Below the pieces are notes generated by a model, which was not told the DNA's origin, ran no database searches, and saw only the letters and a program-made list of their open reading frames with translations. Below, in pieces: positions 10,142-61,237 of a stretch of DNA of 64,000 nucleotides (position 1 is the stretch's first letter; the number at the start of each line of letters is the position of its first letter). Made by a program: the position numbers and the translations under genes. The stretch is from Octopus vulgaris (lineage: Eukaryota): NCBI GenBank assembly GCA_951406725.2, contig OX597816.1, forward strand, positions 157,170,001 through 157,234,000. The letters are read 5' to 3'.

Positions 10142-12256
10142 AGGTTGCTTCTGCTCATGTGCAAGTCAGTGTTGTACTTGACACCGAAGATGTAAGACGT
10201 GTTTTTGAAAGCCGTCTTAAATTAAGGTAAGAATTTTGGGGGTCTAGTGGGGACCTGTTGTATGTTGCAAATTATTTTTACAAGCAACAAGTCCTCACTA
10301 GGGTGTAGTCTGCCGGAGGCTGAGTGAAAATATTATTCACTTAATTGTGAAAATTATTAGTTTGGTAGGCGTATCCTGCCAAACTTCTGTTTGAAAATAG
10401 TGTTGTTCCTGTTAAGGAGTACCTAGAAGAAATTTAGAATGATTTTTAACTGTCTTACAGTTGTGTTAAATTTTGGCCGTAACGGTTAATTGAGAATTTT
10501 TTTGAAAATTCCTCTTGTGAATTCTAGTGGGCGTATCTCGCCAAAAAAATAAGAATAAACCATTTGGATTACCTTTTTGGAGTATTATACAAAGGATTCC
10601 CTGTCTGTGCTATTTGTGAGATTTTTCTTTTACTTTTCCCTTCTTCTATTATTTCTTTCTTTCTAAAAATTTTTGATTCATTCTTTTCATTACTTTAATT
10701 TCAGTTTCTTACCCTCCTCTTTTATTTTGTTTTATTTTTATTCGGTTTAATTTTTTGGCAGACTGTCTTTTGAACTACTTTTGAACTGTTTTTTGACATG
10801 GCAGAGAAGGAATTTAACAAGAAAAACTCTGTCTTAGAGTGGGAAATTAACCCGCCTAAGCAATGGTTAAAAGATATGGAAGAGAAGACGGTGGTACGTA
10901 AAACATATTCTAAAGTTCTTAATTCCATCACCGTCTTCCCAAAACAAGTAATAAAAAATGAACTTAAAGAACATTTGTCCTCTGTAAAATATATATCCCG
11001 TGGTGTCAAACATGCAACCGTATGGTTGCTGTTTGACAACGGGGAAAAGGCTAGCCAGTTTGCGAGTCAGCCTTTAGAAGGCAAGGAAATCCTGTTTCTC
11101 CCGTCATATTGTGGAAGAAAATTAATACGAGCCTGGATATGTGGCCTCCCCCCGGGCACCGAAGCGGATTGAATTGAAGATACCATCCGGCGGGGACTGG
11201 GAGATGGCGGGCCCAGGCTCTTAAATATAAGAGTATTGCCGGCGGCCGATTGGAAAGGGTCAAAAGCGATTTTGACCCTGTGGACCCCATCGGCAGCAAC
11301 AGAACTGGTTTTTCCAGATTTCTTGAAAATGGCTGGCTGCAGGTATCCGGTGATACTTGAGGGACGTCCCCCAACGTGTCACTCGTGCCTGCAGCCAGGC
11401 CACATTAAAAGGAACTGCCCCCAGGACCATGGTAAGGTCCTGGAACAGTCACCAGATGCCACCTCCCCTACCCGGTCAAAGGGAGAGGTGCATGTGGTCG
11501 AGGAGGCTTCAGCCTCCTCAACTCAAAAAGGATTAAAAAGGAAGAAGGCGGGGCAACAATAGTTGCCCGCCGAAAGAACCTAAGGCTTCGGGAGGCGGGG
11601 GAGAGTCTCCGGACAAAGCGGAAGGGCTCCACTCTCCCGAAGCCAGGAAGAAAAGAAAGAAGAACGGGTCATCTCAGCAGGGAGATGTGCTGACTGCATG
11701 TCCCGAAGTTGTGCCACCCACGGTGGAAGAAACCACCCCCACCCTTAAAGATGATCAATTAATTATCTTTTTCTACAAGGGCGGGGAGGTGGAAAAAATA
11801 GTAGAAGAACTTAAAGAAACAGTAGATATGCCCTTCACACGGGATCCCGAATGAGGCATGGGAAATGGCGGGATACAGGAACTCAAGCGGCATTGAAGAT
11901 AATGATGAATATATCGATGTATATATCGAAGAGTAGGAGGTGAAAGACCCTCGTTACAGAGTTTGAAACCTCACCTTATTGGATTATTTTGTAGTGGTTT
12001 ATAACCCAAATTTTGTGTTTTAAGAAAGAAAAAAGAAAATATGTTAAGTAAGAGGTTTTAGTGCCTCCTCATTGTAAAAGGTTCGAAACCTTATATTGAT
12101 TTTTAAAAAACAGAAAATGTGTTTTCGAGAAAAATCCAATCGGCGGGTGTTGGGTTTCGTCTCTCATTTATTCATTATAATTCATTTTCATTCATTAATG
12201 TGTTTGTCCAGCCCGCAAAGCTATTTGTACTGTCTATATGACAAATTTATGAAATA
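10142..12256 (+). mobile_element. ORF1-only non-autonomous retroposon (HAL1/Tx1-ORF1-like)
   Basis: Flanked by 15-bp TSD aagtagcttgcttac (10127-10141, 12257-12271); ends in aataaa; carries a gag-like ORF; no RT or endonuclease motif seen. Confidence 0.8.
10798..11940 (+). pseudogene. Gag/ORF1-like nucleic-acid-binding protein with CX2CX4HX4C zinc knuckle, disrupted
   Basis: ORFs 10798-11172 and 11236-11562 are in the same frame across one TGA; CHSCLQPGHIKRNC knuckle; RRM-like ATVWLLFDN.EKA; basic KRKK tracts; frameshifted continuation to about 11940. Confidence 0.8.
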
Positions 12257-16244: not shown

Positions 16245-16593
16245 ATTTCTACATTATTTACATTATTTACATTCGACGGATATTTGTCCTCATCTTGTTT
16301 GTTGTTAACACAATGTTCCTGCTGATATACCCTCCAGCCTTCTTCAGGTGTCTTGGGGAAATTTCGAACCTGGATTCTCATTATTGTTGTTGTTGTAGTA
16401 GTTGTTGTCGTTGTTGTTGTTGTTGTTGTAGTTGTTGTTCTTGTTCTTGTTCTTGCTGAGGTCGCTGCTTGGAATCGAACTCGAAATCTTGGGGTTAGTA
16501 GCCCGCGTTCTTAGCCACTACGTCATATGCGCCAAGATTCCGAGTTCGATTCCAAGCAGTGACCTGAACAATAACAATAATAATAATAATAGC

Positions 16594-16640
<47 letters not shown>

Positions 16641-16832
16641 CAACAACAACAACAACAACATCGAAAAATACCTTAGGAATGAGAACCCAGGTTCAAAAAT
16701 CCCCCAAGACTCCTGATGAAGTCTGGAGGGTATATCAGCCGAAACATTGTGCTAACAACAAACAAGATGAGGACAAATATCCGTCGAATGTAAATAATGT
16801 ACATAATTCTTCATCTCTTAAATAAAGAACTG
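16245..16832. mobile_element. Palindromic composite element: tRNA-like head + (AAT/AAC)n + hammerhead-bearing tail, two divergent copies
   Basis: Minus-strand tRNA-like head 16459-16531; partial plus copy 16532-16565; tails about 16245-16382 and 16678-16805 are reverse complements. Confidence 0.8.
16707..16752 (+). ncRNA. Minimal hammerhead ribozyme motif, partly decayed
   Basis: CTGATGA-a-gtctg..cagcc-GAAA-CA-TT-gtg; the other arm supplies ggctg/cagc for stem II and acac/gtgt for stem I. Confidence 0.62.
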
Positions 16833-17236
16833 TTTCCTGGACTTCTGCTTAATGAGTGGAAAAGGTATGGGCGCTATGTGGTTGACAGGGATCAGTGAAT
16901 GTTGACTGTGTTTGACAGTGACTCGTATAGCTAGCTTACAGTAACAGAAACCACTGCATTATTGCAGAGAAAGCATGGGAAATACTTGTCTGTGTGTCAT
17001 AGGTCAATGTGTGCTTTGAGCGTTTTCAAGCCAGGCAGCCGAATGGTCTTGTAGCAGAACTGTCTCAGATGTGAGAGCAATATTCTACAGTGGATTTCAC
17101 ATGAAGTTTAAGATTAATAGTTGCTGAGCTCTACAGTATTTTCAAGATTTTCAGAAAGATACATGACCGATCTGTTCTGCTAGGCAGAGATGCTATCTGG
17201 TCAGATATGCTTTGACGGTTAAATATTTCTATTACA

Positions 17237-17849: not shown

Positions 17850-18185
17850 GGACCCAGAACTTCAATATGAATCTCCTGGAATGTAAGCAGGGTCCAAAGA
17901 CTTCCGTCCTGGAGTTTAGGATGTTTTCTGGTTCGAGGGACTTCTTTAATATCTTCGTCCGTTCAGCTAAGCACAGCTTACAACGCTTGCTCTCATTGAT
18001 GTAGAGGCCTAGTTTTTCTGGGACCTTCTATGAAATTATGTGTGGAGCGCCTTCGTTTTTCAGCTGCCATACATGGTTGGCTAAGAATGTAGCGTGTTTC
18101 TTCTCAGAGATTTTGAATGAGGATGTGTTGTTGGAGAGGCGCTCCTTGAATGTGTTTCCGGAACATCCGGTGTATCGTCGTGTAC
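17850..18185 (-). mobile_element. Penelope-like GIY-YIG endonuclease fragment
   Basis: Minus strand RRYTGCSGNTFKERLSN..SF..HATFLANHVWQLK..CKLCLAE..ILNSRTEVFGPCLH. Confidence 0.8.
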
Positions 18186-18469
18186 TGCTGCTGGTGACTA
18201 TGCTTCTGTTAATGTTGACGTGCTACTACTGCAGCAGCACCATCGCCAATGATAACAACAATAACAACGACAACAGCCACCACGATAGCGCCGATAACAG
18301 CTCCAACTGCAACAACGATTGCTATAGTAGCACTGAGAGTGCCAACACCAACAACGCCACTGATGATGTCCCCTATGCCAGCATTAAGGAAGCCAGCATC
18401 TACACCAACACCAACAACACCAGCAACAGTATAAGTGTCAGTGTCAACAGAAACAGCGTCATCAGCAGT

Positions 18470-18655
18470 AGTACACGAAGATACACCGAATGTTCCGGAA
18501 ACACATTCAAGCAGCGCCTCTCCAATCACAGATCCTCATTCAGGATCCCGGATAGGAGATACGCTAAGTTCTTAGCCAGCCATGCAAGGCAGCTGAAAGA
18601 CGACGAAGGAACTCCATACGTAATCTCGTGGGAGATGCTAGAAAAACCAGATCAA
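18470..18655 (+). mobile_element. Second, inverted Penelope GIY-YIG fragment
   Basis: RRYTECSGNTFKQRLSNHRSSF..FLASHARQLK..ISWEMLEK inside ORF 18038..18712. Confidence 0.78.
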
Positions 18656-22229: not shown

Positions 22230-22570
22230 TTATATGTATAATAAACACATTTTATTCCCAATATTATAGGAGTGGGCTCTACCTATAAAACTCCTGTTAT
22301 GGGTGTACTCTCTTTTTCTGGATTTTAATTCCCATATATATTTTCTTAAGCCTGTGAACTTACTTAAATTTGGATTTTTAAAGGTCTGGTAATGTTGGGA
22401 TATTCTTTTTTCAATTTCATTAGCTGTTGATCCACTATAAACCTTATCTATAATTTTAATTTTTTTGTTCTTAGAGCTAACTATACATTTATAAATTACA
22501 TTATCGATATTACAATTATTAGAGACCTTACATTTAGTCTTATCACGACATGAACATTTTTCTATACATT
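22230..22570 (-). mobile_element. Penelope-like (Neptune-type) GIY-YIG endonuclease fragment
   Basis: KCSCRDKTKC..NNC..VIYKC...VYSGSTANEIEKRISQH..F..TGLRKYIWELK. Confidence 0.85.
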
Positions 22571-22663
22571 GATTAAGAAATCTATATATATATGTATGTA
22601 TGCGTGTGTCTTTGTATGTATTTATATGTATGTACATATGCATGTACATTTGTGTGTATATGA

Positions 22664-22704
<41 letters not shown>

Positions 22705-34989: not shown

Positions 34990-35828
34990 TTTTTTTTTTC
35001 TTCTTTCAAATTTTCTTCCATTTCTTGCCGAGTGTCTTCCCGACTCCTAGGGCAAAGAAACTCATAGTGTATATTGGTAAGCCATTAAACCAAACTCAGT
35101 AGTTCGTTCATTTTTTTTTTTTTTTTTTTTAAGTTAAATTAAAATACATGAGCAGCAACAGTTCTCACATCGACAATGCTCTTCTCAATACGTGTGATGT
35201 ACCAGTTAAGACAATCTTTTGCACTTCTTGCAGGGATGGTAAGCCAGGGATCATTCTCATATAATTTTCGGTTCCCTTCTTGATCATTCCTAATGCTCCT
35301 ACGATCACTGGTATTGTAACCGCCTTGAGATGCCACATTTTCTCAATTTCAATGAGTAGGTCTTTATATTTTCTGAGCTTGTCAAACTCTTTCGCTGAGA
35401 TATTATGATCGCAGGGGATGCTCATGTCGATCAATAAGCAAACTTTATTGTTTTGGTCTTTCACAACAATATCTGGTTTATTGGCCTTGATGGTTCGGTC
35501 TGTATGTACTGGAAAGTCCCACAGAATGGTTACATTTTCTCCTTCAGTTACAGCCTCAGGGTGGTGATTATACCACTTGTCGGCAGTTTTGATATTGTAA
35601 TGCCGACTTATTAGCCAGTGGAGATATTGGCCAACTCTGTCATGTCTTAATTTATACTCCACTGGTGCTAAGACTTTACATCCAGAGATTAGGTGGTCCA
35701 CTGTTTCAATCATGTCGTTGCAGAATCGGCATTTTGGGTCTGCTCCATTTTCATCACATTGGCCTGGTAGTTCCGGGTTAATAGGCTTTGGTCTTGAGCA
35801 GCCAGGATGAAACCTTCGCTCTCTGCTT
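34990..35828 (-). mobile_element. 5'-truncated R4/Dong-like LINE (restriction-like endonuclease)
   Basis: ESEGFILAAQDQ, CRFC..ETVDHLISGC, RHD, KPDIVV..LIDMS, EKxxKY, PVIVGALG; 3' end runs into (TAA)n. Confidence 0.88.
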
Positions 35829-35841
35829 TTTTTTTTTTTGC

Positions 35842-35875
<34 letters not shown>

Positions 35876-35879
35876 GGTT

Positions 35880-36770
35880 TGACTCAGGTTCGGTCTTATT
35901 TCTGGTAGCCTTTATATGGGTAGTGGGTTACTATCTGAAACTTTAGGTATCCACAAGTTTTTGGTAGTCTTTCAAGCGCTTAGAAACTTCCTGATAATCT
36001 TTGCTGCCCCTAAGAGACAAACGTTTTAAAGGAGGTTTGCAGGGCATTCTATTTCAGTCTCCTTCAGCCATTTCTCTATATCTTTGCTTTCTGTTCCCAC
36101 CACACAAATCATTATAGGCACGAGCTCTTTACTGTTCTCATGCTCCAAATTCTTCTTATTGCAAATTTTAAGGTGTTGTATTTTTTCTTTCATTCCTTCA
36201 TTTTGTTTTTGATTTTCGCCTTCTTTACGATCCTGTATGCAAACGAGCATGATGGGTCGATTAGTAAGCAACTGCGCGTTTCCCTATCTATAATTGTTAT
36301 GTCCGGTCTATTATTTTCTAACTTATTGTTCGTTTGAAGAGGAAAGTCACACAAAATTTAACATTTTTTCCGACCCCAGTACTTTTTCGAGCCGATGACT
36401 GTACCCTGTGTTTCCCGCTTCAAATCCCCATTTCTGGCAAGGTTTCCAGTGTAAAACTTTTACAGGTTGGTCGTGCCTCCATTTCCTATACTCTTCCTGT
36501 GCCAACTTGGAGCATTCTACCACAATGTGTGTCACTGTCACGTCCCAAGTTCCACAGGCTCTACATTTTTCTAACACATTCTCTGCATATATATTTTTTT
36601 CTCAAGTTATTTGTTTTTATCGCTTGGTCTTGGGATGCTAGAATTAGGCTCTCTGTTTCTTTCTGTTTTTTAATTGCCCCTTTTTTAACCAAGCTCAGGA
36701 TTTTGTTCCACATACATCTTCAGTGGCTCTCTAAAATTGGCCACACAGAGGTTTCTCTTCAATCTATCTG
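35880..36770 (-). mobile_element. Older, decayed R4/Dong-like LINE fragment
   Basis: KCRACG..TVTHIVVECSKLAQEEYRKWRHD..LHW; RPDI; 3' end runs into (TAA)n at 35845-35875. Confidence 0.82.
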
Positions 36771-38720: not shown

Positions 38721-38958
38721 GGTTGGACCTTTATTTTCAATAATTACAATTGTTTCAACGCAACGTAGTTCTCCAGACATGCAGGTACTTGATTATGAGA
38801 CCGTTTTCCTGCATTATGAGACAATATTTACATATCACCTGAGGAAACACATCTAGATCTCACAAAGCATGAAAACGGTTTCAGAATCAAGTAGCTGCGC
38901 GCCTGGAGAACTACGTTACGTAGAAACAATTGTAGTGATTGAAAATAAATCTCCAACC
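38721..38958. repeat. Diverged ~100-bp inverted repeat with hammerhead-like motif
   Basis: Arms 38721-38822 and 38858-38958; CTGGAGA-actacgttacgta-GAAA-CAATTG-TA-gtg. Confidence 0.72.
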
Positions 38959-39028
38959 GTATTTCTTTTTTTTTACTCCAAATTTGTTCAATTATTCAGA
39001 TATATACGTATATATATATATATATATA

Positions 39029-40254
39029 TTGGAATCCGTGGAAAAGTTCTACACTGGATTAAGTATTTCCTGGCGAATAGAACACAACATGTTGTAGTTG
39101 ATGGAGTCCACTCAAACCCACCAAAAGTCACCAGCGGTGTTCCCCAGGGAACTGTTTTGGGTCCGCTACTCTTCATAATTTACGTAAACGACCTTTCCAG
39201 TGTCGTACATCACTGCAAAGTGAAAATATTCGCTGATGACACTAAGCTCCAGCAAATCGTCAATGAAGAAGCAGACCGAACTCAACTCCAGTCTGATCTA
39301 TATGCTGTGAGTCAATGGGCAGACAGAAACAAAATGCAACTGAATGAGGGAAAATTTGAGCTGATGCATTTTGGAAGAAATTCCTCACTAAAACAACCAT
39401 ACTCTCTTCCTTCAGGGGAACCGCTCACAGCCTCTAACAATATCAGAGACCTGGGTGTAATTGTTGATGACGATCTCAGTTGGAGTGCACACATCAACAA
39501 GAAGGTCGATATAGCTCGTAGGATGAGTTCCTGGATCTTAAGAACTTTCCGGTCCAGAGAACAAGGTGTCATCATACCACTTTTTTCCTCCTTTGTACGG
39601 CCACACCTTGAATACTGCTGCCCACTGTGGTCTCCTCACACAAGACAAAACATCTCCAGAATTGAGTCACCCCAGAGGGCTCTCACTAAACAAATTGAAG
39701 GCATGGCTGCTCTCGATTATTGGGATCGCCTTAAAGCCCTGAAACTTTACTCCCTCCAGCGTCGCCGTGAGCGGTACATCATTTGTACGATGTGGAAAAT
39801 ATACCGCCAACTTTGCCCAAACGACCTAAACATTAGCTTCAAGGTTCATCCAAGACTTGGACCACGGGCTATACGTCCCCTGCCAAATTCAAGATCACAA
39901 CATACATGTACACTGTAACATAATTTCTTTTCCTCAACAGGCCCTGCCCTATTTAACATTGTCCCGAGGGAGATCAAAGAGGAAAAGGATCCCATCAACT
40001 TTAAACAGAGTCTGGATAGATTCCTTCAAAGAATACCAGATAAGCCACCCATAATTGGATACAACTCACCCAACAAGAACTCACTACTTGAACAAAACTG
40101 GATACAACTCACCCAACAAGAACTCACTACTTGAACAAAACTTGACTTAAACAGGATTCGAATAATCCTATCAGGTGGTGCTATTAAGTTAGACATGGCC
40201 TGGACCAATCTCTGGTCGAAACATATCTAAGTTTTATCTAAGTTTCTAAGTTTT
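39029..40254 (+). mobile_element. 5'-truncated CR1/L2-group LINE (RT C-terminal half + 3' UTR)
   Basis: SGVPQGTVLGPLLFIIYVND, FADDTKL, RDLGV, VRPHLEYC, SLQRRRERY; one premature stop at 39918; 43-bp duplication at 40057-40142; tail (tctaagttt)n. Confidence 0.93.
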
Positions 40255-49356: not shown

Positions 49357-50280
49357 GTTAGTTAGTTAGTTAGTTAGTTAATTTTTTTGGCTCAAAAAGC
49401 AAAAAGCAAGGCCATGTAGGGGGACATGGAGTTATGTACAGGGTGGTGTTCATGTAAAGAGTTCAGGCCACTTGAGGTCCAGGGAGACTTTGAACAAAGC
49501 GGTCGTCGGCATCTTCACCATCTCGTCTGGCAGCTTGTTCCATGGATCCGCAACCCGGACGGAGAAAGCCCCTCTCCTTCGATTGAGATGAAATCGTCGC
49601 AGATAGAGCTTTTCGGAATGACCCCGCAGCCGACGCTCTGGAGCAGGAGTGAAGAACAGCTCTTTCGAGAGGTTACACTTTCCGCTTATGATGTTTTGAG
49701 CGAGAATGAAATCACCACGGCGGCGGCGTTTTTCTAGAGAAGAAAGGTCGAGCGTCTTCAGCCTTTCTTCATAAGACAAATTCTTGAGACCATGAACCAT
49801 GCGGGTAGCCAGCTTCTGGACTCTTTCGAGATGCTGTATGTATTTGAGGAGATAAGGAGAAGAGGCTTGAATCCCGTACTCCAATGTGGGTCTCACCAGC
49901 GTGACATAGAGCGGTAAGAATATGGCTGCTGTGAGCATTCCGAATGACCGTCGAATCAAGAACAGAATTTCGCGTGCTTTGTTGGCAGCATAGACGCACT
50001 GGGCCGAAGGCGAAAAGGAGAATCCACCAAGATACCCAGGTCCTTTACCTGATCGGTCCTCTCCAGCAGCAGACGACCCGGCTCGAAATCAAGTTGAGTT
50101 GCAGGAGGAGAGCCAACAGGCAGATGACAGCACTTTGACACGTTCAGCACAGGTCCCATTCGTTAGACCACCTCCAAATTTGGTGGAGACATCGACGAAG
50201 ATCCTCTATATCACCGCGAGGAGCGACCAGTTTGACATCGTCGGCAAATAGAAGGGTGTGTTGCGTGAGGTCGAGGTTAT
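49357..50280 (-). mobile_element. 5'-truncated CR1/L2-group LINE
   Basis: LLFADDVKL, KDLGI, VRPTLEYG, LERVQKLATR, LRGH, FSVRV..WNKLP; (TAAC)n tail. Confidence 0.9.
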
Positions 50281-58295: not shown

Positions 58296-61237
58296 CATAG
58301 CTTCCCAAAGTGAGTGATGGACGAATTAGTAGAAAATGGTGGGCGATATGAGCATTTTGTGGGTGACAATGAATTTTTAGAAAGTAAGTCTACATTTACT
58401 GATATCTAGGCTTGCTCAGAATATGGATTCACGTTTATCAATTAGATTACTCGCTTGAGACGTCACTTTGTATTTAAAAACGGACTTGTTAATCAATCGA
58501 ATATTTTTGTAGCAGTCATGGCGATGGTTGTCATGTGTGCTAAAAATAGCAGCCAAATGGGCCTAAGCCTTAAATCACACTCCACCACAATTTCTTTTTT
58601 TTTTTTTTCATTTTTAGCATAGTCGTATGAATTCCAGCCTATAGAATTCAAATTTGCAAACATTTTCTGAAAACTTCAAAACATAAAAAGTTTTGAGGGG
58701 TTATGTGTCGTACGTAATTCTGTGGTTTCATACCAAACACAAATGCTATTTTCAGGGTGTTGACAAAATGTGCAGTCACGCACAAATTGACAGCTTTGAA
58801 ATCGTGTTTCTTGACTGGGTGAAACTTTAAACCTCTATAACTTCTTTAAAACATTTTTCTGGAAAAAGTCGAATAACTCTAGCAATTTAATATGGAAAGG
58901 TACATTAATGAGCCAAATGTTAAATTGTTGATAGGATTTAATTTTTTAAATGCTGGCAGCCAAACGAACTAGATCCGTATTTGCTCCAGTAAAGACTATC
59001 ATCTGACTGTGCTCTATTGACTTCTTCTCTTTGGGAGTAGCATACTGACTTTCTAATGCGGTCTGTAGGAATTCGTTTTCACATTTTCACTTTACTGATG
59101 CCTCCAGTCAAGAAGATTTGTCGACAGTACAGTAAGGATTATTTAACATTTGGATTTATTCCCTCTCCTCAGAACTGTCAGTTACCAATGTGCCTTCTTT
59201 GCCACCAATGAAGCAATGAAACCTTCATACTTGAAGTAACATTTTGATGCAAATAATTCTGACAAGAAGGACAAGCCGATATCATACATTTTGCAACTGA
59301 GCTTCTCTTTCGAAAAGCAAATACAAACATTCAACTCGCTACTCCAAGAAACTAGTAAACAGGATAATGACGGGTCGATTGCATCGTACAACATTGCATT
59401 GCTAGTTGCTAAGTTTGGGACGTTTCACACAATTGGAGAAACATTACTTCACCCAGTTATTGAAGAGGTTTTGTCAACCATTATGCTTGAAAAAACCGAT
59501 AACATTACGAAGAAGATACCACTTAGTAATAACACAATTTCTCGACGCATGGCCAACGATGTCAAACCTCAGCTCATTCATATTCTCCAGCTTTCTGAAT
59601 TTTCTATACAAGTGGATGAGTCAACTGTTGAAGACAGTCGATGTTTGATGATGGTATATGTGCAGTATTTCAGTGAAGACCTTCAACCTTGTGAGGAAAT
59701 GCTGTTCGCAGAGAAATTGCCGTTTGATTCAAAAGGTGCAACTATTTTTCTCACACTCAAGTCTTATCTTTTTGAACATGATATCCCACTCAATAATATT
59801 GCTGTGCGTCTGGTGGAGCCCCTTCGATAATAGAAAAACAGAGAGGGTTTTTTTATCTCTCCTAAAGCGTGATATTTCCCACCAGATATTAACAGTTCAT
59901 TACTTGGCACACTGACAAAAAATATGAACAGAATATTGAGTGATGCGCTACAAGTTAGTTATCAAGACTGCGAACAAATTGAAGTCCAGTCCCATGCCTA
60001 ATCAAATTTTCCGTCAAATATGTCTGAGAAATGATGAGGACCATGCAAAACTCTTATACCATACCAAAGTGTGGTGGCTGTCAAAAGGAAACTGTGTTTT
60101 ACGCTTTGTTGAACTGTTTCATATAATTATATCTTTCTTTGAAGATACTCCACTATCCGCTTTATTGATGGCTGCAAGATGCTATGTCTTTTTTCTTTGT
60201 GATATATTCACGAACTTAAATGATTTCAATAAGTTATTGCAAGGAAGCAGAAATCTCTCGTTCATTGTAAATCATTTATCACTACCTTCATTTCGAAATT
60301 GGTGTTGTATAAGACTAACATCTCAAAACGTTAATTCCATCAATTTCCACAATTGAAAGATGAATTGCTTGATGAGGATTTTGCTACATATCGCAACTAT
60401 TTACAATCATTGCACGATAACATGGTGGAGCAATTTCAAGATGTTATTGCACTGAATATTCCAAATTGGTATAGCGATCCATTTAAGGTCGATGCAGTCG
60501 ACTGCAAGGACGACGTTCAGGAGGAATTGATAGAATTACAAAATGACAATGATGACACAATGTGATATCACCGTAATGGCAAAGAAAGTTTGTAGTACCA
60601 TCAGAGTATATTGAATTCCTACCCCAATCTGTGGAAACATCTGATATTACTTTTGCTTACCCTTCCTACCACATACTTAATTGAATCTGGTTTTACCCAT
60701 GTTGGAACTTTACTTTCCCAAAAAACAATTGGACTGGATGTGACAGAACGGGAAAACTTGCGGCTAAAGTTGACAAATTTGAAACCGAATGTATCTGCAC
60801 TAGTTGCATTGCACCAGACACATGGTTCTCATTAAAAACGTTTTATTCTTTTCCTTTATAATACAATCATTAACTATTTTCCATCGGTAGTTCTGATCAA
60901 TAGTTCATTTGGGGAAAATGAAAATTAGTGTAAAAAAAGCGCAAGCTTCCAGAAGTTAATCTGTCTGCATAATATAGAGTTAACGTTAGCATTTTATGCA
61001 CACTAATGGCAAAACTAAACCCATGATAAGAGATTTGTAAAGAACCGCATATTTAGTCCAAACGGCACTAACATGGAAACGAGTCTACGATATAGTGAGT
61101 GTGTGTCAAATGCTACGAGGGGGGAAAGCCCTGGAGGTTTAGTGTTGGGGTCTTTTTATACAAGTGGGCGATGGAGCATTTTTTGGCCGATAGGTGGGCG
61201 ATATTGCAATTTGGTGTGAAAAGTTTGGGAAACACTG
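58296..61237 (+). mobile_element. hAT Buster/Charlie-type DNA transposon, full length
   Basis: TIRs catagcttcccaaa / tttgggaaacactg; 8-bp TSD ctctatac (58288-58295) / ctctatat (61238-61245) with central TA. Confidence 0.9.
59098..60835 (+). pseudogene. Buster-type hAT transposase (ZBED5/SCAND3-like), disrupted
   Basis: RQYSKDYLTFGF, HTIGETL, IPLSNNTISRR, FSIQVDEST, LLYHTKVWWLSKG, PTTYLIESGF, LRLKLT; stops and frameshifts. Confidence 0.92.

Follow-up and report, generated by a model that had tools for sequence, protein, structure and literature searches.

Neptune and Nematis elements carry a zinc-finger-like linker between reverse transcriptase (RT) and endonuclease (EN), which members of the Penelope/Poseidon clade lack. 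Three families of octopus tRNA-derived SINEs were reportedly described by Ohshima and Okada in 1994, and we take these to be the families OK, OR1 and OR2, of tRNA-Arg origin, with a 'Twin' SINE besides. As a working rule, in the general accounts of these elements, Pol II serves the autonomous retrotransposons, and Pol III, together with a LINE partner, serves the SINEs (PMC3531059, PMC10886601). The hammerhead found in Penelope-like elements (PLEs) is described as minimal, consisting of the core, a bulge after position 9, G10.1-C11.1 and a palindromic stem III (PMC4209133). For the anole element PAc, both DNA strands are reported to be cut and extended in vitro, with reverse transcription starting at two adjacent internal sites and the protein acting as a predicted dimer (PMC11167929); inverted copies have alternatively been read as the result of self-priming on an antisense template (PMC3846280). 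For the animal non-LTR retrozymes, an origin from PLE pLTRs, as non-autonomous derivatives, has been proposed (PMC7229834, bioRxiv 10.64898/2026.07.22.740005), and the schistosome elements Sm-alpha and Sj-alpha are, by their published descriptions, apparently transcribed by Pol III (PMC2770079, PMC6765202).

The palindrome considered here lies in a window of 64,000 nucleotides of Octopus vulgaris DNA, the whole stretch that was analysed. The complete two-armed unit occupies approximately positions 16250-16833, with its arms arranged head to head and their junction at 16531-16532, from which the minus arm starts at tRNA position 3 and the plus arm at position 41. On the minus strand, a tRNA-derived pLTR head (16456-16530, tRNA positions 3-77, placed by its boxes, tRNA numbering and alignment with host tRNAs) has T8 at 16525, the A box at 16525-16515, the anticodon ACT at 16499-16497 and the B box at 16480-16472. 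It is followed by an (AAC/AAG/TAC)n microsatellite (16383-16455), which separates the head from the ORF start, this arm having no 17-nt linker ahead of the ATG, and by the tail (16250-16382), which is the start of a Penelope ORF (ATG at 16381-16379, the frame taken from locus L212) and finishes at a short 3' site. The plus arm consists of a 5'-truncated head (16532-16570, positions 41-79) with a B box at 16544-16552 and without an A box, an (AAT)n(AAC)n microsatellite (16571-16660), and the linker with Penelope ORF codons 1-51 (16661-16833, ATG at 16679), finishing at a long 3' site; the stretch beyond the short site, 16808-16833, is the optional Penelope 'tail'. The 3' end of the minus arm falls about 26 nt short of that of the plus arm, and the tails of the two arms are 91.5% identical over 130 nt. 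An earlier note, made from the sequence alone, had described a minus-strand head with A and B boxes followed by (AAC/AAT)n and a tail, as well as a 5'-truncated copy facing the other way to form a palindrome of ~590 bp, and both are present as described. The best candidate for a target duplication around the insertion measures 4 nt. We infer that the window copy, some 5% from the family majority, is a dead relic, and we hold it very probable indeed that the palindrome is a pair of Penelope pLTRs. Our overall reading, to which we assign a probability of roughly 0.75, is of one Penelope-type insertion of two head-to-head pLTRs, in which the tRNA-derived segment likely acts as an internal Pol III-type promoter.

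The term 'tRNA-like', as applied to the head, is a qualified one, founded on boxes, numbering and alignment with host tRNAs. In the family majority, the tRNA numbering is exact and the A and B boxes are intact, and in a comparison with 30 host tRNA genes of six isotypes, the head was, among those sampled, closest to tRNA-Arg(TCT) (z 7.8). On these features the tRNA-like head of the earlier note stands, but ARAGORN, run on the window and on 51 loci, called no tRNA, and Rfam matched neither a tRNA nor a hammerhead on the unit. The bases of the A and B boxes are only slightly better conserved than the remaining bases of the head. As a separate observation, ORF-linked arms show more C-to-T changes at head CpG sites (76/291) than solo arms do (43/268), G-to-A changes being equal in the two (58/290 and 59/269, respectively).

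The pLTR motif in the tail is a minimal type I hammerhead, with the core, the bulged base, G10.1-C11.1 and the palindromic stem III, and the 46-nt motif is unchanged (position 7 free) in 24 arms among the ~370 examined, position 7 being its sole polymorphic column other than CpG. In the window, the minus-arm copy (16307-16352) is degenerate, with GGAA replacing GAAA and the first pair of stem II broken, and the plus-arm copy (16708-16753) has an intact core with three mismatches in its stems; the palindromic stem III is lost from both. The hammerhead tail put forward in the earlier note is correct as to the minimal motif carried, but the motif that it quoted is pieced together from both arms, each of them degenerate. 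Truncated 5' ends that fall between tail positions 63 and 126 number ~56; seven of them are found at positions 89-90, the predicted cut, two of the seven being one fold-back at a palindrome, and positions 96-98 hold 12. Cleavage by the putative ribozyme would require a dimer or the help of protein.

An autonomous Penelope sharing the tail was found, and the tail is the first 51 codons of its ORF of 833 codons, which encodes RT and GIY-YIG. The order of the element is tRNA head, microsatellite, ATG with hammerhead and tail, rest of the ORF, stop codon, 29 nt, and the head again. At L212 the head, microsatellite, ATG, hammerhead and tail continue in frame into the ORF, which identifies the tail as codons 1-51. 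At the other end, in a sample of 56 protein-selected loci, 48 of which reach the stop codon, the head begins 29 nt past the stop in one continuous alignment in 44 of the 48. The pLTR is present at both ends of the element, overlapping the ORF start, and the stretch from stop to ATG comprises 130 nt plus the microsatellite and is mostly tRNA-derived. L449 and L468 are near-complete natural copies, and L129 and L130 are widely spaced inverted pairs that enclose Penelope coding sequence. In Pfam, a natural open frame of 569 aa at L206 matched RVT_1 with an E value of 2.7e-6, just under the cut-off; the GIY-YIG domain was recognised by motif alignment only, PF01541 giving no match. By eye, the tail peptide can be aligned to the start of P0006, a foreign Penelope protein of 847 aa, at its N-terminus; by BLASTP the peptide alone matches this protein weakly (E 0.007, 9/16). 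Homologues number 2,923 at E<=1e-20, the relatives P0004-P0010 being 55-68% identical, and no intact natural ORF was present among the matches listed.

The family thus resembles EN+ PLEs in having a single ORF with a predicted PLE-type RT and C-terminal GIY-YIG, a pLTR at both ends that overlaps the ORF start, an optional tail at one end, which in such elements measures 30-40 bp, an inverted 5'-truncated copy and a minimal hammerhead motif. Its ORF lacks the linker motif seen in the host Neptunes, and in a quick tree, built without a named Poseidon reference, it lies far from them. Neptune elements were considered as the partner and rejected; these families, found through PF01541, have a hammerhead variant of their own and no similarity to the tail. 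A head-less Poseidon control was sought in the same genome with a distant protein, and 30 of 30 loci belonged to the tRNA-headed family; a search of viral contigs for a relative found none. The head, microsatellite and hammerhead tail are the entire pLTR of a Penelope element, probably of Penelope/Poseidon type, and the family is an old, high-copy and now decayed retrotransposon. The 29-nt spacer between stop and head looks like an inverted copy, since decayed, of the head's first ~22 nt (for example at L185 and L129:6046-6075), a likeness that parallels the fold-back junctions of the short copies, and the tRNA/Penelope chimera may have been born through the same joining step as those junctions.

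The 5' ends of 87 head-bearing arms bear on the function of the tRNA segment. They fall inside the head in 29 arms, at -7 to +9 in 41, at -20 to -8 in five and further upstream in 12; 41 of the 58 arms that reach +9 hence stop at -7 to +9, and the stop rate is 0.042 per nt at the tRNA start, compared with 0.008 inside the head and 0.002 upstream. A review of 68 junctions, in which apex overlaps are counted twice, gave 33 stopping at -8 to +3 without fold-back, 11 fold-backs, 13 at +4 to +9 and 11 into the ORF. It is probable, in our view, that the tRNA segment is the start site or promoter of at least the short RNAs. For the seven ORF-bearing copies in which the 5' pLTR reaches the head, one starts at the tRNA start (+4), three stop inside the head and three run upstream of the tRNA start, and these last indicate that some ORF RNAs began further upstream.

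These same data could be accounted for by a passive old insertion of a tRNA into the 3' UTR, with transcription by Pol II from a TATA-like word or by read-through, and with a pile-up produced by stalling or fold-back of the RT at a hairpin. The 29-nt spacer does form a hairpin over +1 (-13.4 kcal/mol), which could produce a pile-up of 5' ends with no start site involved, a TATA-like word lies across the stop codon at approximately -34, and both the fold-backs (11/68) and the full-length 5' ends upstream of +1 (3/7) are in line with such an origin. Other promoters have also been described for these elements, namely a TATA-less, LINE-like internal promoter in the Penelope of D. virilis (PMC2377424) and a pLTR with a putative TATA and Inr in rotifers (PMC3846280). 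We nevertheless consider passive insertion unlikely, because 33 of the 68 junctions stop at -8 to +3 without any fold-back, the family majority retains intact A and B boxes and tRNA numbering, there is little other non-coding sequence to hold a promoter, and the sense strand is free of runs of four or more Ts.

This last property had been predicted beforehand, in that an element read by Pol III should be without TTTT; of the 30 host tRNA genes, 23 have a run of at least four Ts within 35 nt downstream. Across its 2,499 coding nt, as across its non-coding part, the column-majority sense strand contains no such run; the expectations for the coding nt were 2.9 from a synonymous shuffle (P 0.028), 3.8 from a T/C redraw (P 0.0095), 5.5 from 15 foreign ORFs with a T content of 19.5-23.5% (P 0.004) and 7.2 from 26 foreign ORFs with a T content of 19-25% (P 0.0008). 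The foreign Penelope set comprised 80 loci, 53 of which had a usable ORF; none of the 29 foreign ORFs of at least 1,500 nt was without a T run, two of the 53 were equally T-run-poor at P<=0.05, and the Neptune elements of the same genome have seven to eight runs. Natural copies of the family contain 0.37 runs per kb, L206 having three in 1.7 kb. The absence of TTTT would fit transcription by Pol III. Runs of at least four As are also 20% under expectation (28 versus 35, P 0.017), which suggests a general avoidance of homopolymers and so speaks for the passive insertion. Low-threshold tRNA and A/B-box scans of the 80 foreign Penelope loci were too noisy to tell tRNA heads. RNA-seq data (three raw runs under one related label) gave no pile-up of starts or ends on the element; the reads lay in both orientations and 69-74% of them continued into unlike flanks, a pattern consistent with passenger copies that weighs neither way. 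The fullest form of the promoter reading, in which the whole ORF element would be transcribed end to end by Pol III from a captured tRNA promoter, with an ORF purged of TTTT terminators and a pLTR doubling as a self-mobilised SINE, we regard as tentative and rather doubtful; the translation of an uncapped Pol III RNA, for which it has no explanation, counts against it.

In the mechanism proposed below, the two internal sites at which cDNA is primed fall within the pLTR; for this reason, any RNA that starts at the head, whether short or full length, would yield SINE-like solo pLTRs, and no separate SINE lineage is then needed. A distinct non-autonomous tRNA SINE lineage, with masters of its own, mobilised in trans by the Penelope protein and leaving the ORF-linked heads as a record of its origin, would explain the ~7 to 1 excess of short over ORF-linked copies and the position, tRNA position 1, at which the short ones start; moreover, at L398, L399 and L404 a pLTR starting at -10 to -1 comes after an ORF fragment, which suggests short RNAs from there. 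We judge this lineage improbable, because the unit is the autonomous element's own pLTR and because, in a comparison of 92 solo arms, a set chosen in part for similarity of the head, with 62 ORF-linked arms, none of 236 columns separated the two after correction and beyond CpG decay (the best P value being 0.003, uncorrected), and divergence was alike (5.9% versus 6.9%, respectively). The short copies, with no column to separate them, behave like a tRNA SINE without standing out as a family in their own right, and we prefer to read them as solo pLTRs derived from RNAs that begin at the head.

The unit shares with SINEs, as defined in SINEBase (PMC3531059), its shortness, its tRNA-derived head and its internal A and B boxes, but it is a Penelope's own pLTR with a PLE as partner, rather than a non-autonomous, LINE-dependent family in its own right. 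The earlier note had proposed a tRNA SINE that borrowed a Penelope tail, and this proposal is not supported, as the tRNA head belongs to the pLTR of the autonomous element and no diagnostic column sets the short copies apart. Neither is the unit, which the same note envisaged as a SINE/retrozyme hybrid, a retrozyme in the sense of tandem monomers each with a complete hammerhead, as tandem tails are rare (L035, L054).

In order to describe the insertions themselves, a sample was taken from the first 100 tail matches on contig 1 and the window, giving 86 loci after five duplicates were removed; the segmental copies L383-L385 were kept in the counts of ends and pairs, and L385 was left out of the count of target duplications. 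Divergent, head-to-head pairs were found at 56 of the 86 loci and a convergent pair at one, most loci being inverted pairs or single arms. The 3' ends are bimodal (n=146; 77 short, 64 long and five other), at two sites ~30 nt apart, and sequencing reads have loose ends at the same two positions. A long and a short end are combined in 49 of the 56 inverted pairs, compared with 27.8 expected (P 2.7e-9), and target duplications of 8-14 bp, lengths inflated by a boundary slack of up to 6 nt, were found in 24 of 53 pairs, compared with ~0.5 in shuffles. In a comparison that bears on whether the two arms of a pair come from a single RNA or from two, the identity of arms within pairs is 91.4%, against 90.7% for shuffled pairs, with partial concordance at one subfamily site. 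The recurrence of long and short arms in pairs at many loci, together with the target duplications, bears out the earlier interpretation of the palindrome as a Penelope insertion signature. In the mechanism that we propose, RNAs would begin a few bases ahead of tRNA position 1, the element protein would nick both DNA strands as a dimer, one cDNA would be primed on each strand from two internal start sites within the first 51 codons, and the two cDNAs would, we infer, be joined at their 5' ends. At L390, L398, L399, L404, L391 and L394 we also observed tandem junctions, in which a 5' fragment of the ORF is followed directly by a new piece of pLTR; this suggests template jumps between RNAs.

Exact genomic matches to 18-mers numbered 9,079 for the tail, 6,004 for the head and 1,172 for the spacer just upstream of the head, and the reversed controls gave none, so that the unit is not a product of chance. 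Corrected by the match rates in protein-selected copies (20/66, 20/62 and 30/64, respectively), these counts correspond to approximately 30,000 tail, 18,600 head and 2,500 spacer arms. The linkage of head and tail, which the earlier note had named as a check, was confirmed at 25 of 30 head-selected loci, where the tail follows the head; in four of the remaining five, two of which appear to be duplicates, the head is accompanied by the microsatellite alone, and the fifth is a truncated palindrome. A fortuitous nesting of unrelated repeats with a later local inversion, in spite of the ~9% difference between the arms and the lack of a clear target duplication at the window insertion, is refuted by the same architecture at 56 of 86 loci with long and short ends, by the target duplications and by the head-tail linkage, and we give it practically no credence. 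The arms lie 5.5% from the column majority, near the SINE/LINE burst reported for O. vulgaris at a distance of 0.065 (PMC13282606). A search with the tail peptide also met gene models of O. sinensis and O. bimaculoides. In the Octopus gene models P0002 and P0003 the N-terminal residues are derived from this pLTR, and one of the two starts at the element's own ATG; these N-termini may represent either exaptation or an artefact of annotation.

Several other elements were encountered. A second inverted pair in the window (18053-18603), with 167-nt arms that are 83% complementary, composed of a GIY-YIG-like coding fragment with an asparagine/serine-rich centre, is probably another Penelope-like insertion, of a different family, and an open frame at 22230-22703 (minus strand) has a Penelope-type GIY-YIG-like C-terminus, recognised by eye. 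Also by eye, fragments resembling LINE ORF1, C-termini of RTE/CR1-type RTs and a hAT-like transposase were noted at 10774-11562 (plus), 35165-35911 (minus), 38857-39918 (plus), 49450-50088 (minus) and 59240-60356. Young Neptune families are represented by L091 (906-4587, and 430-885/5217-5672), L092 and L095, in which open frames of 781 aa are numerous. Upstream of the RT ORF these families have a further open frame, of 359 aa; their 3' UTR contains CCAAT/TGACGTC repeats in tandem, their hammerhead shows a variant core (U3-A8), their 3' ends are of two kinds, and they are targeted to (TA)n. The inverted arms of L095 are 100% identical. Another hammerhead-like repeat, with a different stem II, at L091:6170-6290 possibly belongs to a further PLE-derived family. 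At L129:2160-5075 a non-LTR element of ~2.9 kb with RT and restriction-like endonuclease motifs is inserted in the Penelope copy, and this insert is absent from the duplicate, L130.

Among described systems, the family is most like the Penelope/Poseidon PLEs (PAc, PMC11167929; Pen2, PMC3846280; PMC8557442), with which, as they are described there, it shares a single ORF of RT and C-terminal GIY-YIG, a pLTR that includes the first ORF codons and a minimal hammerhead, an optional tail of ~30 nt, an inverted 5'-truncated copy, solo pLTRs and target duplications, which are of 8-10 bp in those elements. The paired long and short arms and the target duplications also fit the biochemistry reported for PAc (PMC11167929), and tens of thousands of two-armed insertions, with a long and a short end and a target duplication, offer genomic support for its model of two strands and two start sites, independently of the Pol III question. 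The promoters of these PLEs, in the same accounts, are of Pol II type (PMC11167929, PMC3846280, PMC8557442). In contrast, the non-coding pLTR of the octopus family is almost wholly tRNA-derived, with A and B boxes, its 5' ends pile up at tRNA position 1, and its sense strand is without TTTT.

In the literature covered, outside which lie subscription papers, Repbase and Dfam, we found no tRNA-headed pLTR of an autonomous Penelope; hammerhead-bearing tRNA elements and Pol III TRIMs are already known. Like the animal non-LTR retrozymes, the unit has a type I hammerhead, but the available descriptions define retrozymes by units repeated in tandem, each with its hammerhead, and tandem tails are rare here (PMC7229834, bioRxiv 10.64898/2026.07.22.740005); the terms 'tRNA' and 'Pol III' do not occur in the accessible text of the retrozyme preprint (bioRxiv 10.64898/2026.07.22.740005). 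The octopus SINEs, compared by description only, are likewise tRNA-derived and of high copy number, and the head here is nearest to tRNA-Arg among the isotypes sampled; the short form may already bear an octopus SINE name or a name in Repbase or Dfam. A large 'unclassified SINE' fraction has been reported for O. vulgaris (PMC13282606), and, as solo pLTRs are SINE-like, part of it may consist of Penelope ends.

The schistosome elements Sm-alpha and Sj-alpha are similarly tRNA-related, hammerhead-bearing and of high copy number; as described, they are non-autonomous, often tandem, with canonical hammerheads and no attached ORF reported (PMC2770079, PMC6765202), unlike the unit here, which is the pLTR of an ORF-bearing element and occurs mostly as inverted pairs. 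The TRIMp3 elements Cassandra, Helenus and Ajax provide the other parallel, a small-RNA-derived Pol III promoter, putative in our case, inside a terminal repeat; those, by the published account, are LTR elements that measure 311-1,263 bp, are non-autonomous and have a PBS and PPT, and the octopus element is a Penelope with a 2.5-kb ORF (PMC10886601). What departs from the working rule is that a candidate tRNA promoter sits inside an ORF-bearing Penelope, whose solo pLTRs look like SINEs. If Pol III were to make the whole mRNA, this would be a natural case of protein-coding transcription by Pol III followed by translation, and, if true, it would show the birth of a SINE inside its own partner.
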